Program-made: the position numbers and the translations under genes | Assembly (NCBI GenBank): GCA_964448275.1 | Contig: CAYUWI010000002.1 | Coordinates: forward strand, 1-47,553 | Direction: 5' to 3' | Source: an uncultured Gammaproteobacteria bacterium | Lineage (GTDB): Bacteria > Pseudomonadota > Gammaproteobacteria > Thiohalorhabdales > CAYUWI01 | Length of the DNA: 47,553 nt | Notes under the pieces: generated by a model | Told to the model about the DNA's origin: nothing | Seen by the model: only the letters and a program-made list of their open reading frames with translations | Databases searched by the model: none | In this document: positions 2,611 through 40,483 of the stretch, piece by piece | Layout: every line of letters begins with the position of its first letter | Numbering within the stretch: the stretch's first letter is position 1

Positions 2611-3117
2611 TTAGATTGATTGACCATCGTCCTCCAATCCTATAAGCCTTTGCAAGTGATAGATGTCAGCTTGATCTTGCGCACGTCCTGCGTGTTCTTT
2701 GAACCGAATCATATCAGCAATGCTGGCGAGGTAAACGATTATCCCTGTGATCTCACGCGGTTCGGCTCGATTAAAGGCAGAATTGATATCGAAGGGGACA
2801 TCGATCAGGATGTCAACGGTCGGCTGGGCAGGCAAAGGGGGGCGAAGTGCGAAAGCGGTCATATGCTTTTCTTGGATCCAGTAGGTGCGCTGGCTGGCGT
2901 CCGCCAGCTCTTCTAGGGACACGGGCAGGCTCGGTTTGAGGTCAAGCTCCCGTGCCACCTTGAGAAAATTTTCCAGATTCTCCGGATCGGATATTAAGGC
3001 GAGGTCCACGTCCATGGTCATCCGGGGGACCCCGTGGAGATTCATGGCCAGGCCACCGACGAGCAGATAGCGTACATTGTGGTTTTGCAGCGCTCGAAAG
3101 AGATCAAGATAGAACAT
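2611..3117 (-). CDS. small nucleotidyltransferase-fold protein (minimal NTase, DUF2204/DUF6036-like)
   Basis: 168-aa ORF containing LLVGGLAMNLHGVPRMTMDVDL, a Gly-rich loop plus DxD pattern typical of pol-beta-type nucleotidyltransferases. It lies 10 nt downstream of pepN on the same strand. The family assignment is from memory only. Confidence 0.5.
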   Translation of the reverse strand: MFYLDLFRALQNHNVRYLLVGGLAMNLHGVPRMTMDVDLALISDPENLENFLKVARELDLKPSLPVSLEELADASQRTYWIQEKHMTAFALRPPLPAQPTVDILIDVPFDINSAFNRAEPREITGIIVYLASIADMIRFKEHAGRAQDQADIYHLQRLIGLEDDGQSI

Positions 3118-18243: not shown

Positions 18244-18381
18244 TTATGCGCTCAACCGTTTCCGCCCTTTTGCACGCCGGCGTCGCAAGATCTGACGCCC
18301 CTCCCTTGTTGCCATCCGGGCACGGAAGCCGTGGCGACGTTTCCGCTTGATTTTGCTTGGTTGATAGGTCCGCTTTGGCAT
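18244..18381 (-). CDS. rpmH: 50S ribosomal protein L34
   Basis: Not in the ORF track because it is under 60 aa. My own translation of the minus strand gives [45 protein letters not shown] followed by a stop. Confidence 0.9.
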
Positions 18382-18750: not shown

Positions 18751-19848
18751 GTGCGGTTCCATTGCAATAGAGAAGAACTCCTGAAGACGATTGCACCTAC
18801 TACAGGGGTTGTGGAAGCGCGTCAAACGCTTCCGATCTTAGGGCACCTCCATCTCGAGGTAACCACAGATCGGGTCATCCTGACTGGGACCGATCTCGAG
18901 GTCGCGTTGAAGGCTTGGTGCCCAGCCCAGGTAGAGGAGCTGGGAGAAGCAACGGTTCCAGCTCGAAAATTCTTGGAACTAACACGTTCTCTCCCAGAGG
19001 GAGCCGATTTGCAGCTGGGTCAGGCCGACGGGCAAGTATGGATTCAAACGAAGCGCAGTCGGTTTGGTCTTGCCACCCTTCCTCCGGATGATTTTCCGGA
19101 GTTAGAGCTGGGCGACCCCGAGCAAGAGGTTTCGCTTTCTCAGGGTGTCCTGAAAAGGTTACTCGGTAAAACCTCCTTCGCTATGGCACGAGATGATGTA
19201 CGTTATTACCTCAATGGGATCTTCCTCGAGTGGATGGAAACAAATCTCCGGGCTGTAGCCACTGATGGCCATCGCTTGGCGTTGATGGACCACGAGGTTG
19301 CACCGGCTGAGAATCCTGTTCGGGTCATATTGCCACGGAAGGGGGTTCGGGAGTTAGAACGTCTACTCACTGAGCGTGAGGATGAACTAGAAGTCGGGTT
19401 TGGGCCAAATCACGTGCGTTTCCGGCTCCCGAGACTTACCTGTACCTCAAAGTTAATTGAAGGCCAATTTCCGGATTACCACCGGGTCATCCCGACGCTG
19501 GAGGGCAACCGACTTCAAGGAGATCGCCAGGCGATTTTGCAAGCCTTAAAGCGTGTTGCCATCCTCTCTCACCGCAAGACCCGCAGGATCCGACTGAATT
19601 GCCGATCCGATCTCTTGGAGATCAGTGCGGAAAACCCCGATCAAGAACAGGCGAACGAGGAGATCCCGGTTTCCTATGATGGGGAACCTTTGGAGATCGG
19701 GTTTAATGTCGAGTATCTGCTGCATGCCGTGGGAGCTATTCCGACAAGCGAGGTATGCTTCCATTTCCAAGATAGCCAATCGAGCTGCCTTGTTGTCCCG
19801 ACCGGTGCACCGACCGTGAAATATGTCATTATGCCGATGCATCTGTAA
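18751..19848 (+). CDS. dnaN: DNA polymerase III beta sliding clamp
   Basis: 365-aa ORF with a GTG start. N-terminus F.C.REELLK...RQTLPILGHLHLEV and C-terminus VIMPMHL, typical of DnaN. Followed by recF and gyrB. Confidence 0.95.
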   Translation: MRFHCNREELLKTIAPTTGVVEARQTLPILGHLHLEVTTDRVILTGTDLEVALKAWCPAQVEELGEATVPARKFLELTRSLPEGADLQLGQADGQVWIQTKRSRFGLATLPPDDFPELELGDPEQEVSLSQGVLKRLLGKTSFAMARDDVRYYLNGIFLEWMETNLRAVATDGHRLALMDHEVAPAENPVRVILPRKGVRELERLLTEREDELEVGFGPNHVRFRLPRLTCTSKLIEGQFPDYHRVIPTLEGNRLQGDRQAILQALKRVAILSHRKTRRIRLNCRSDLLEISAENPDQEQANEEIPVSYDGEPLEIGFNVEYLLHAVGAIPTSEVCFHFQDSQSSCLVVPTGAPTVKYVIMPMHL

Positions 19849-19854
19849 CTGCTG

Positions 19855-25000
<5,146 letters not shown>

Positions 25001-37714: not shown

Positions 37715-37746
37715 AGCCCCACCGGCAAACGGTGGGGCTTTATTTA
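37715..37746 (+). terminator. Rho-independent terminator of groESL
   Basis: AGCCCCACCG-gcaaa-CGGTGGGGCT followed by TTATTT. Confidence 0.8.
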
Positions 37747-38170
37747 CTCCATTCACACCAGGCCCTTTTGAGGAGAGGGTGTGCTTGCCTTGGAACCGTT
37801 GTGGGTAATTGTTTACTGCAAGGAGATAATATGGAAGAAGACAGATCGCAGTAAACATGATAAGGTTAAATGGTATAATTTTGCAGAAAAAAATCGGATT
37901 ACGGCATAAAAGAGAATCTATAGTACCATACATCCTGGGTCGCTATTATTTACGCCCTCTATATAAGAGAGGAGGCGCATTATGGCGGTAAGGGCTTGCG
38001 GTATGCTCGGGTAGGGTATAGCTAGAGCATTGCAGGCGAGGGAGTGGCAAGAGAGAGCGGGTTAGGTGGCCTATACTAAGGAGCAGAGGAGATTGTATCC
38101 CCGGGATGACGATTCGGGGATGAGCAACCTGTAACACCGATCAAGATGGTTGTACGTGAGGAGTTGCGGT

Positions 38171-40483
38171 ATGCCGGAGGAACGTCGTGGGATACAGTGC
38201 AAGGTCGCGGAGGCTCAGAACAAGGACGTGGGGCGGGCCTACGCACGTATGGCTCCGGAAGACCTAGAGCGCCTGGGGGTAGAGGTCGGCGACTTCGTGC
38301 AGGTGATCGGCAAATACAATACGGCATGTAAGGCCATGCCCGCTCAGCGGGATAAGGAGGATCATGGACAACAATCTCCCTTGATCTACGATCCGGATAG
38401 CAAGGATTTCCAGGCTGTGCCTGATCAGGTAGATAAGCGGTACGCCACGGATACCTGGGAGGAGACCATTGCCAAGGCGGCCTCGACGATCGCCGTCCAG
38501 CTTGACGGTATCACACGCGAGAACGCGGGAGCTGGTCTGGACGATACCGTTGAGGTCCACCCCATTGAGTGCCAGCCGAGTAAGCGCATTGAGGTAAGCC
38601 CCATCAATGTGAATCTAAAAAGCGGGGACCTGCGGTATGTGAGCCTCTTCGAGGGCCTTCCACTGCAGCGAGGTGATCGCGTCCGGGCGACCCTCATGGG
38701 GAGCCGCACAGCCGATTTCCGGGTCGAGAGCACCGACCCCAAGGGGCCTGTCTACATCGTCCCGAGCACCAAGCTAGCAATCAGTGAACGCAAAAAGGAG
38801 AGTCAGAAGGAACAGGAGACCGAGCGCGCAGTCTCCTATGAAGATATCGGGGGGATCCAATCCCAGCTCCAGCACATTCGAGAGATGATCGAGCTGCCAT
38901 TGCGCTTTCCCGAAGTCTTCGAACGGCTCGGGATCGAGGCACCGAAGGGGGTCTTGCTCCACGGCCCTCCCGGCTGCGGCAAGACCCTGATCGCTCGGGC
39001 CATCGCCTATGAGGCAGAGGCCCAATTCTTTTCTGTGAGTGGCCCCGAGATCATGCATAAGTTCTACGGGGAGAGTGAAGCCCATCTGCGCAACATCTTC
39101 GAAGAGGCAACCAAGCACGGACCAAGCATCATCTTCTTGGACGAGATCGACGCGATCGCCCCCCGTCGCGAGCAGGTGGGAGGCGACGTGGAGAAGCGTG
39201 TAGTGGCGCAGCTGCTCGCCCTAATGGATGGGTTGACCAGCCGCCAGAATGTCGTGGTCATTGCCGCCACCAATATCCCGAACGTGATCGATCCAGCCTT
39301 ACGCCGTCCTGGCCGCTTTGACCGAGAGATAGAGATCCCGATTCCCGACCGGAGGGGGAGGCTCCAGATCCTGCAGGTCCACAGTCGGGGGATGTCCATG
39401 GCAGAAGATGTCAATTTGGAGCGGATGGCAGAGATCACCCATGGCTTCGTGGGCGCGGACCTGGAAGCACTCTGCCGCGAATCAGCGATGAACTGCCTGC
39501 GGCGGGTAGTCCCGGAGTTTGACTTCACCATGACCCGCCTCCCCTATGAGCAACTGATCAAACTCCAGATCTCGATGGACGACTTTCGGGCCGCACTGCA
39601 CGAGGTAGAGGCCTCAGCAATCCGCGAGGTCTTTGTCGATGTCCCGCCCGTGAAGTGGGATGAGATCGGCGGTTTGTCGACAGCCAAAGAGCGCCTCCAA
39701 GAGGCTGTGGAGTGGCCTCTCAAGTACCCACACCTCTTCGAACAGGCTGGAATCAGCCCGCCCAAAGGGATCCTCCTTGATGGCCCCCCAGGGACAGGAA
39801 AGACCCTATTAGCCAAGGCGATTGCCAATGAGAGCAATGTCAACTTGATCTCAGTCAAGGGGCCCTCACTCCTATCTATGTATGTGGGTGAGTCGGAGCG
39901 AGGGATCCGAGAGTCCTTCCACAAGGCCCGACAGGCCGCCCCTTGCATCCTCTTCTTCGACGAGATCGATGCCCTACTGCCCACCCGGTCTGGGGGGATT
40001 GCGGAGTCACGAGTGACCGAGCAGGTCCTGAGTCAATTCTTGGCGGAGATGGACGGGATCGAGGAACTCAAAGGGGTCCTGGTCTTGGGTGCAACCAACC
40101 GTATGGATAAGCTTGATCCAGCGGCGCTACGCCCGGGTCGCTTCGATGAGCTCGTCCATCTGCCTCTACCCAATGAGCAGGACCGCAAGGAGATCTTTGA
40201 GATCCACCTCCGGGATAAGCCGCTCGCCTCAGGAATCGACATTAATCGGCTTGCGGTTCGAACAGAGGGGCTTAGTGGTGCGATGATCTCCGGTATATGC
40301 GATGCAATGGCTCGGCGGGCGGTGCGCCGCGCCGTGGCCGATATCGAGAAAGTGAGTAATGAACAGCAAGACCTGGAAGTCCACATCACCCCAGAAGATG
40401 TTGAAAACGCGCTTGCTGAGCTTATTGCGACGGAGGAAGAGGAGCCCCACCACGAGCAAACCCAGAGTGAAAGCATCCAATAA
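38171..40483 (+). CDS. Cdc48/VAT/p97-like type II AAA+ ATPase (N domain + D1 + D2)
   Basis: The start was set to the ATG at 38171 (GAGGAG lies 7 nt upstream); a TTG at 38150 is also possible. The N domain resembles archaeal VAT (KVAEAQNKDVGRAYARM..., LDGITRENAGAGLDDTVEV). Two AAA modules are present: GPPGCGKT/IIFLDEID and GPPGTGKT/ILFFDEID. Both carry SRH-type motifs (ATN...DPALRRPGRFD). Length 770 aa. Confidence 0.85.
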   Translation: MPEERRGIQCKVAEAQNKDVGRAYARMAPEDLERLGVEVGDFVQVIGKYNTACKAMPAQRDKEDHGQQSPLIYDPDSKDFQAVPDQVDKRYATDTWEETIAKAASTIAVQLDGITRENAGAGLDDTVEVHPIECQPSKRIEVSPINVNLKSGDLRYVSLFEGLPLQRGDRVRATLMGSRTADFRVESTDPKGPVYIVPSTKLAISERKKESQKEQETERAVSYEDIGGIQSQLQHIREMIELPLRFPEVFERLGIEAPKGVLLHGPPGCGKTLIARAIAYEAEAQFFSVSGPEIMHKFYGESEAHLRNIFEEATKHGPSIIFLDEIDAIAPRREQVGGDVEKRVVAQLLALMDGLTSRQNVVVIAATNIPNVIDPALRRPGRFDREIEIPIPDRRGRLQILQVHSRGMSMAEDVNLERMAEITHGFVGADLEALCRESAMNCLRRVVPEFDFTMTRLPYEQLIKLQISMDDFRAALHEVEASAIREVFVDVPPVKWDEIGGLSTAKERLQEAVEWPLKYPHLFEQAGISPPKGILLDGPPGTGKTLLAKAIANESNVNLISVKGPSLLSMYVGESERGIRESFHKARQAAPCILFFDEIDALLPTRSGGIAESRVTEQVLSQFLAEMDGIEELKGVLVLGATNRMDKLDPAALRPGRFDELVHLPLPNEQDRKEIFEIHLRDKPLASGIDINRLAVRTEGLSGAMISGICDAMARRAVRRAVADIEKVSNEQQDLEVHITPEDVENALAELIATEEEEPHHEQTQSESIQ

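Follow-up and report, generated by a model that had tools for sequence, protein, structure and literature searches.

We identified a gene for a CDC48-family AAA+ ATPase, cdc48, at positions 38171-40483 of the forward strand (770 amino acids, stop codon included) in a 47,553-nucleotide stretch of contig CAYUWI010000002.1 (GenBank assembly GCA_964448275.1) from an uncultured gammaproteobacterium; the whole of this stretch is referred to below as the window. The gene is a member of a known and widespread bacterial CDC48 family, and it is distinguished by a 41-residue expansion of a loop in its N domain and by its position outside gas-vesicle (gvp) clusters. On sequence evidence, we put at about 0.5 the probability that the window Cdc48 has shifted to clients other than those of its gvp-linked relatives, and we consider this shift the most likely reading because the gvp context has been lost, a conserved loop has been destroyed and the N domain has evolved fast. 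The unusual part is narrower than a preliminary description of the locus proposed, which saw an archaeal or eukaryotic type of enzyme with an N-domain insertion in a proteobacterial housekeeping locus: it is a copy that left the gvp context and rebuilt a loop of otherwise fixed length.

The family assignment is secure. Pfam recognizes CDC48_N (in two stretches), CDC48_2, two AAA and two AAA_lid_3 domains, with PF02359 (CDC48_N, 67.6 bits, split in two by the insert) and PF02933 (CDC48_2, 43.1 bits) both above cutoff, and with 840.5 bits the protein passes the curated cutoff (802.65) of the NCBIfam CDC48 model TIGR01243. The N domain (residues 1-215; 38171-38815) combines a double-psi barrel (CDC48_N) and a beta-clam (CDC48_2, residues 158-209), and the strands of an AlphaFold2 (AF2) model fit this fold. 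It is followed on the same strand by the D1 module (residues 216-480; 38816-39610) and the D2 module (residues 481-750; 39611-40420). D1 carries Walker A GPPGCGKT (265-272), Walker B IIFLDE (320-325), an aromatic pore loop KFYGESE (297-303) and the arginine-finger box RPGRFD (379); the D2 equivalents are GPPGTGKT (538-545), ILFFDE (593-598), MYVGESE (570-576), also aromatic, and RPGRFD (654). The acidic C-terminal tail (40421-40480, predicted local distance difference test (pLDDT) <50) ends in EEEEPHHEQTQSESIQ and lacks an HbYX motif. The N-D1-D2 architecture, the two complete modules of Walker A/B and second region of homology, and the tail ending SESIQ without HbYX were thus all correctly given in the preliminary description. 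The AF2 model has a mean pLDDT of 74.5, and Foldseek matched it to full-length p97 and CDC48A chains (E ~1e-72). The gene product is, by its motifs, a bona fide CDC48/p97/VAT double-ring (type-II) AAA+ ATPase with intact catalytic sites in both rings and, by analogy with its characterized homologues, would form a hexamer with unfoldase activity.

Other AAA+ families fit less well. The NCBIfam models for FtsH, Mpa and CdvC score below their cutoffs, as do the Pan1 and Pan2 equivalog models; the PAN subfamily models pass theirs because the contributions of two AAA modules add up. PAN, ARC and Mpa are single-ring proteins, PAN and Mpa having coiled-coil/OB domains, and FtsH has a transmembrane segment and an M41 protease domain, whereas the window protein has two AAA modules and none of these elements. 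Profile matches to PADLOC IetA (257 bits) and TRIP13 (111 bits) and to NCBIfam IteA (245.6 bits) would suit an anti-phage defence ATPase of the IetA/IteA or TRIP13 type. However, these matches reflect generic AAA similarity, each falling in two stretches, the IteA score is far below its 510-bit cutoff, and the neighbours are housekeeping genes with no adjacent IetS protease or HORMA/CD-NTase partner, so we regard a defence role as highly improbable.

The nearest relatives of the window protein are bacterial. We retrieved at least 8000 protein-database candidates, all with E <= 1e-50, of which the best have 700-730 residues and share 62-66% identity; those that are labelled carry the NCBI name 'CDC48 family AAA ATPase' and come from Desulfobaccales, Syntrophobacterales, Acidobacteriota, Spirochaetia and Pseudomonadota. 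Among the matches listed, no cluster exceeds 66% identity except the window protein itself. In addition, a scan of one genome per Genome Taxonomy Database (GTDB) species gave 385 relatives, and the best 80 (52-65% identity) were used as comparison loci L001-L080; their hosts include Desulfobacterota, Acidobacteriota, Myxococcus, Planctomycetota, Chloroflexota, Omnitrophota, anammox bacteria and a few Proteobacteria. One metagenomic homologue (P0002, 1024 residues) has three tandem AAA modules, consisting of N-D1-D2 and an extra D2-like module. In a neighbor-joining (NJ) tree the window protein lies on a long branch inside the bacterial clade, beside gvp-linked sequences. All 100 bootstraps put its sister group inside the gvp-linked subclade L001-L030; the protein itself was basal in none of them, and in 79 it was inside the common ancestor of that subclade. 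As far as sequence comparison goes, the window Cdc48 is nested in the gvp-linked bacterial clade.

This placement bears on a possible recent transfer from archaea, in which the protein would be an ATPase of a proteasome or ubiquitin-like pathway with partners encoded elsewhere. Non-actinobacterial bacterial Cdc48 homologues have been described as 'sporadically occurring' and grouped with the archaeal ones (PMC6017811). VAT of Thermoplasma acidophilum (5g4f) is also the best match in the Protein Data Bank (PDB; E = 2e-194), ahead of plant CDC48A and human p97, and the proteins share 62% identity in D1, 52% in D2 and 30% in the Nc subdomain, in line with the closeness of D1 to VAT given in the preliminary description. 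Nevertheless, the closest sequences, at 62-66% identity, are bacterial and enclose the window protein, HbYX is absent from all 81 proteins compared (the window Cdc48 and its 80 homologues), no proteasome or ubiquitin-like gene was found among the large open reading frames of the window, and the composition of the gene is host-like. A recent archaeal origin is therefore very unlikely. The label 'archaeal/eukaryotic-type' holds for family and for likeness to VAT, but the rarity that it implied does not, as there are thousands of bacterial relatives at 62-66% identity.

The neighbourhoods of these relatives have a common theme. We called and clustered open reading frames (ORFs) in the 80 loci and confirmed the identities of the neighbours by Pfam. 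GvpL/GvpF genes lie within 6 kb of cdc48 in 70 of the loci, usually as two copies directly downstream on the same strand, and an Hsp20/GvpH-like gene lies upstream in 48, with a median gap of 18 nt between its end and the start of cdc48. Further large neighbour families are sigma-54 activators, a GvpN-type AAA_5 ATPase, GvpK, GvpG and ArsA, while a GvpA/J/M sequence motif occurs in 53 loci, including textbook GvpA sequences. Two further contigs with precomputed Pfam labels (L165 and L166) show the matching order of sigma-54 activator, HSP20, CDC48, two GvpL_GvpF genes and then two Gas_vesicle genes, AAA_5, GvpG and ArsA. Examples of the linkage, which extends over at least eight phyla, are L165 (8060-22133), L001 and L009. 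Taken together, the neighbour families indicate that the nearest relatives of the window Cdc48 are a conserved component of bacterial gas-vesicle clusters. The linkage is not absolute, since a few homologues, such as L030 and L061, have no gvp genes within 6 kb. The remark in the preliminary description that partners are unknown misses the strong context evidence for the clade, whose homologue sits in a gas-vesicle cluster in 70 of 80 genomes.

The steady position between Hsp20 and GvpL/F argues for a role of the gvp-linked clade in the handling of gas-vesicle proteins, and such a role is what gene context would suggest. Candidate roles would be the extraction or unfolding of aggregation-prone GvpA-family proteins, or the recycling of assembly factors. 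A literature search on gas vesicles together with Cdc48, p97, VCP or valosin returned no paper on a Cdc48-gvp linkage, and we found no experimental characterization of the clade. The window protein shares with this clade 62-66% full-length identity, the N-D1-D2 arrangement, the pore loops and the missing HbYX. It differs in its surroundings, its loop and its more diverged N domain: the clade has Hsp20 and GvpL/F neighbours and an 11-residue N-domain loop, whereas the window copy is without these neighbours and has a loop of 52 residues.

The loop in question lies between the invariant residues P57 and Q110 (residues 58-109; 38342-38497, forward strand; pI 4.2). It measures 52 residues in the window Cdc48 and exactly 11 in all 120 homologues, which comprise 80 genomic and 40 database sequences in two independent alignments, giving a net gain of 41. 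The part without any counterpart spans residues ~68-107 (38372-38491), in good agreement with the roughly 40 extra residues originally placed at 38360-38490; VAT lacks them, and an alignment check for the insert as a family norm found it in none of the 120 homologues. The clade consensus of the short loop is AYKELRGQSR plus V or I and is basic. Its length is constant in all 120 homologues and its sequence is nearly invariant among the 40 closest; from this constant length we conclude that the insert is not a loop of variable size that happens to be long. An exhaustive phmmer search of 1.84 billion representative proteins, with residues 1-215 (the N domain) as query, yielded 920 hits; none of the 150 listed covers residues 68-106, and each of these 150 alignments is interrupted near residue 67 and picks up again near 108. 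Scanning of JGI metagenome contigs with the insert peptides YDPDSKDF and YATDTWEE found only insert-free relatives. The insert is unique among the 120 aligned homologues and the protein and metagenome sets searched.

We also considered how the insert might have arisen. A repeat, a duplication or the scar of a mobile element was ruled out, since the insert neither contains nor is flanked by repeats and resembles nothing else in the protein, the window or the homologue loci. Misassembly was excluded as well: a separately assembled Logan contig (run SRR14300226) matches at 100% identity over 8162 nt and codes for the identical protein, which shows that the insert is no assembly error. The insert has 8 D/E against 4 K/R residues, and its GC content at third codon positions (GC3) is 0.67 compared with 0.70 for the gene. 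The AF2 model gives it a pLDDT of 29-36, with a weak hairpin at residues 72-81 and a helix at 96-104; it is probably flexible. Structure prediction for the N domain, suggested earlier as a means of placing the insertion, was uninformative for the insert itself. According to our alignment, residue 108 corresponds to p97 residue 81, and the insert occupies the counterpart of the p97 loop S73-E80, which comes after the strand bearing I70 and L72. We take these two p97 residues to line the Nn-Nc adaptor-binding cleft. The titles of PDB entries include T76A and T76E mutants of p97, and the equivalent loop has thus been studied in that protein.

Divergence along the protein follows a pattern compatible with a change of recognition. 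We compared each domain with the consensus of the window protein's subclade and counted mismatches at columns conserved at >=90%. Identity of the N domain to the consensus is 0.54 (other members: minimum 0.62, median 0.77), with 17 mismatches at conserved columns (others: median 2, maximum 12); deviations beside the insert include K60R, R63E, Q65H and R108A. For D1 the identity is 0.78 (others: minimum 0.82), also with 17 mismatches (median 2, maximum 17), and for D2 it is 0.72, within the 0.69-0.84 of the others, with 11 mismatches (median 1, maximum 13). In the window Cdc48 change is greatest in the recognition domain, beside a conserved motor, and its N domain is the most diverged in the subclade.

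These data might also be read as those of a decaying or neutral relic, which lost its partners after transfer and in which the insert and the N-domain changes reflect relaxed selection. The long branch, the largest deviation falling at conserved N-domain columns and the low confidence with which the insert is modelled are all in keeping with this. On the other hand, the 770-codon frame is uninterrupted, neither ring has lost any ATPase, arginine-finger or pore-loop motif, D2 is as conserved as is usual in the family, and GC3 is close to that of groEL (0.70 versus 0.69). We therefore consider a relic unlikely. The intact frame, D2 conservation within the family range, groEL-like GC3 and a good Shine-Dalgarno sequence suggest that the gene is probably expressed and retained.

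The second distinctive feature is the genomic location. The window is core chromosome: mnmG, mnmE, yidC, rnpA, rpmH, dnaN, recF, gyrB, parAB, purD/H, prmA, accBC, cutA, fxsA, groES and groEL lie upstream of cdc48, and endo_dU, polA, a LOG-family gene and an APH-family kinase gene lie downstream. PolA is 64-67% identical to that of Thiohalorhabdus sp. and ~55% identical to that of other Gammaproteobacteria, which confirms the proteobacterial host. Pfam scanning of the large ORFs of the window found no proteasome, ubiquitin-like or adaptor domains, as had been stated before, and blastp and tblastn searches found no homologue of gvp families, Hsp20 or GvpN anywhere in the 47.5 kb. One Thiohalorhabdus-like contig has the order APH-DUF2782-LOG-polA-Endo_dU followed by lactamase_B, isochorismatase and DUF188 genes, and another runs from polA, SIR2, isochorismatase and DUF188 to groEL-groES-fxsA-cutA-accBC; neither has cdc48. 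This synteny indicates that cdc48 arrived in this lineage as a single gene, at a variable site between groEL and polA. The host-like GC3 speaks against very recent transfer from a donor of distant composition.

Whether the protein nevertheless remains a gas-vesicle factor has to be weighed here. An unlinked Cdc48 could serve a gvp cluster elsewhere in the genome, where it might, for instance, work with an Hsp20 to unfold or recycle GvpA or assembly factors; its close relatives are gvp-linked, and L030 and L061 likewise lack gvp genes within 6 kb. Set against this are the lack of any gvp, Hsp20 or GvpN gene in 47.5 kb, the destruction of a loop that is fixed in length across the clade and nearly invariant among the closest gvp-linked relatives, the most diverged N domain of the subclade, and the absence of cdc48 from the syntenic site in related genomes. 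We judge continued gas-vesicle service, the main rival reading, to be rather unlikely, and the client shift remains the preferred reading.

A client shift may be understood through comparison with characterized systems. VAT and p97 are double-ring hexamers that thread substrates through a central pore by ATP hydrolysis. The D1 pore loop of the window Cdc48 reads KFYG, against KYYG in VAT (PDB entries for VAT and archaeal Cdc48: 5g4f and 5vc7), and this aromatic loop resembles VAT rather than p97, whose D1 pore loop is without aromatics; with a VAT-like D1 loop, both rings look competent for threading. Unlike VAT and archaeal Cdc48, which docks to the 20S proteasome by its HbYX C-terminus, the window protein has no such tail, and its N domain is only ~30% identical and carries the 41-residue insert. 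Eukaryotic Cdc48/p97/VCP gives a full-length fold match (Foldseek TM ~0.6, 40-42% identity), but no UBX, Ufd1 or Npl4-type adaptor or ubiquitin gene lies near the window copy. ClpB/Hsp104, a functional analogy only, is likewise a double-ring AAA+ threading motor, and the Hsp20 gene that precedes cdc48 in the gvp clade recalls the cooperation of small heat shock proteins with this disaggregase; however, ClpB/Hsp104 belongs to another AAA+ clade, and the window Cdc48 has neither an M-domain nor an adjacent Hsp20. Cpa is, like the window protein, a bacterial double-ring Cdc48 relative, but it belongs to an actinobacterial cluster of its own, its gene shares an operon with psd and pssA, and the protein is a binding partner of the 20S proteasome (PMC6017811). 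The window Cdc48 is unlike it as judged from context, with a gammaproteobacterial host and groEL and endo_dU as neighbours.

From these comparisons we propose that the window Cdc48 would work as a stacked hexamer in which, as in VAT and p97, the N domain grips substrates, which are then threaded along the central channel by the aromatic pore loops of D1 and D2. It would act independently of the proteasome, given the missing HbYX tail and the absence of a 20S gene nearby. The gene would descend from the Cdc48 clade of gvp clusters and have been acquired by, or relocated in, a Thiohalorhabdus-related gammaproteobacterium as a single gene, entering the slot between groESL and endo_dU-polA. After it left the gvp context the N domain would have diverged fastest, with the basic 11-residue loop of the clade replaced and lengthened by 41 acidic residues. 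Most plausibly it would serve general or stress proteostasis as an unfoldase or segregase working on its own, and the expanded loop may alter which partner or substrate the N domain accepts. A fuller version is exaptation, in which a gas-vesicle Cdc48, after single-gene transfer to a halophile-related gammaproteobacterium, lost its gvp partners and turned the basic loop into a 52-residue acidic site of recognition or autoregulation; we offer this version tentatively, as a scenario less probable than not. Plain halophilic surface adaptation would also be in keeping with the acidity of the insert and with the protein's low pI (5.06; clade median 5.9).

Several points weigh against the proposed shift of clients. 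Expression, activity and the change of client are predictions from sequence. The trees are NJ trees rooted on VAT as the sole archaeal outgroup and contain no Cpa sequences, and the 80 comparison loci were chosen through peptide patterns and form a biased sample. The insert is carried by a single sequence, and both its modelled structure and its placement with respect to the binding cleft are of very low confidence (pLDDT ~30). A gvp cluster could lie outside the 47.5-kb window with this Cdc48 still serving it, and the proximity to groESL may be coincidental.

The setting of the gene suggests independent expression. The ORF spans 38150-40483 (forward strand), and we chose the ATG at 38171 as the start; the N-terminus from this codon aligns with those of the homologues, and a Shine-Dalgarno sequence GAGGAG (38158-38163, forward strand) precedes it by 7 nt. 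The groEL-cdc48 spacer is 430 nt long and AT-rich (GC 46%). Within it, on the forward strand, consensus matching alone gave a terminator-like hairpin of groEL at 37715-37739, with a 10-bp stem containing 8 G-C pairs and a T-rich tail, and a candidate sigma-70-like promoter at 37852-37879 (TAAACA-16-TATAAT with an extended TG, 10 of 12 matches). The hairpin between groESL and cdc48, together with the promoter-like site, suggests that cdc48 is probably transcribed separately, as a monocistronic unit from its own predicted promoter. No structured RNA was matched when the long leader and the whole window were compared with Rfam at gathering thresholds. A 19-nt direct repeat, probably due to chance, is present at 37988-38006 and 38156-38174 (84% identical, 168 nt apart); its second copy covers the cdc48 start codon together with the Shine-Dalgarno sequence.

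The neighbouring endo_dU gene (PF01949; 40605-41174, reverse strand) lies directly downstream of polA, as it does in one Thiohalorhabdus sp. (L082, 12810-13379). The Endo_dU family is mainly archaeal. Joint transfer of cdc48 with this gene was considered and rejected: Endo_dU occurs in none of the 80 homologue loci, and the polA-Endo_dU pair already exists in Thiohalorhabdus without cdc48. The pairing hints at a Pol I-coupled route of uracil excision. Elsewhere in the window, gyrB (20813-25000, forward strand; 1395 amino acids) contains an intein with Intein_splicing and LAGLIDADG homing endonuclease domains at residues ~612-1085. At the usual place of rpmH, dnaA and dnaN, rpmH (18244-18381, reverse strand) is followed after a gap of ~370 nt by dnaN, which starts at 18751 on the forward strand, and no dnaA-sized ORF is present between 18244 and 18751. 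For a short ORF of 168 amino acids (2611-3117, reverse strand), similarity to the AbiEii/DUF6036 nucleotidyltransferase toxin family is confined to the N-terminal half of that family; the ORF may be the remnant of a toxin-antitoxin system.

In conclusion, the gene taken alone adds one bacterial member, with a loop specific to its lineage, to a AAA+ family that is well annotated, and its value is modest. If the exaptation scenario were true, Proteobacteria would have a Cdc48 system that depends on neither gvp genes nor the proteasome. Of greater value as a lead is the link that joins Cdc48 to gas vesicles at the level of the family, across many bacterial phyla. If confirmed, this link would add an unfoldase step to models of gas-vesicle assembly or turnover, and it would bear on gas vesicles engineered as acoustic reporters. 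The window copy is a natural experiment, in which the motor is the same, the usual partners are gone and the recognition loop has been rebuilt, and it could show where in the N domain the choice of clients is determined in bacterial Cdc48 proteins.

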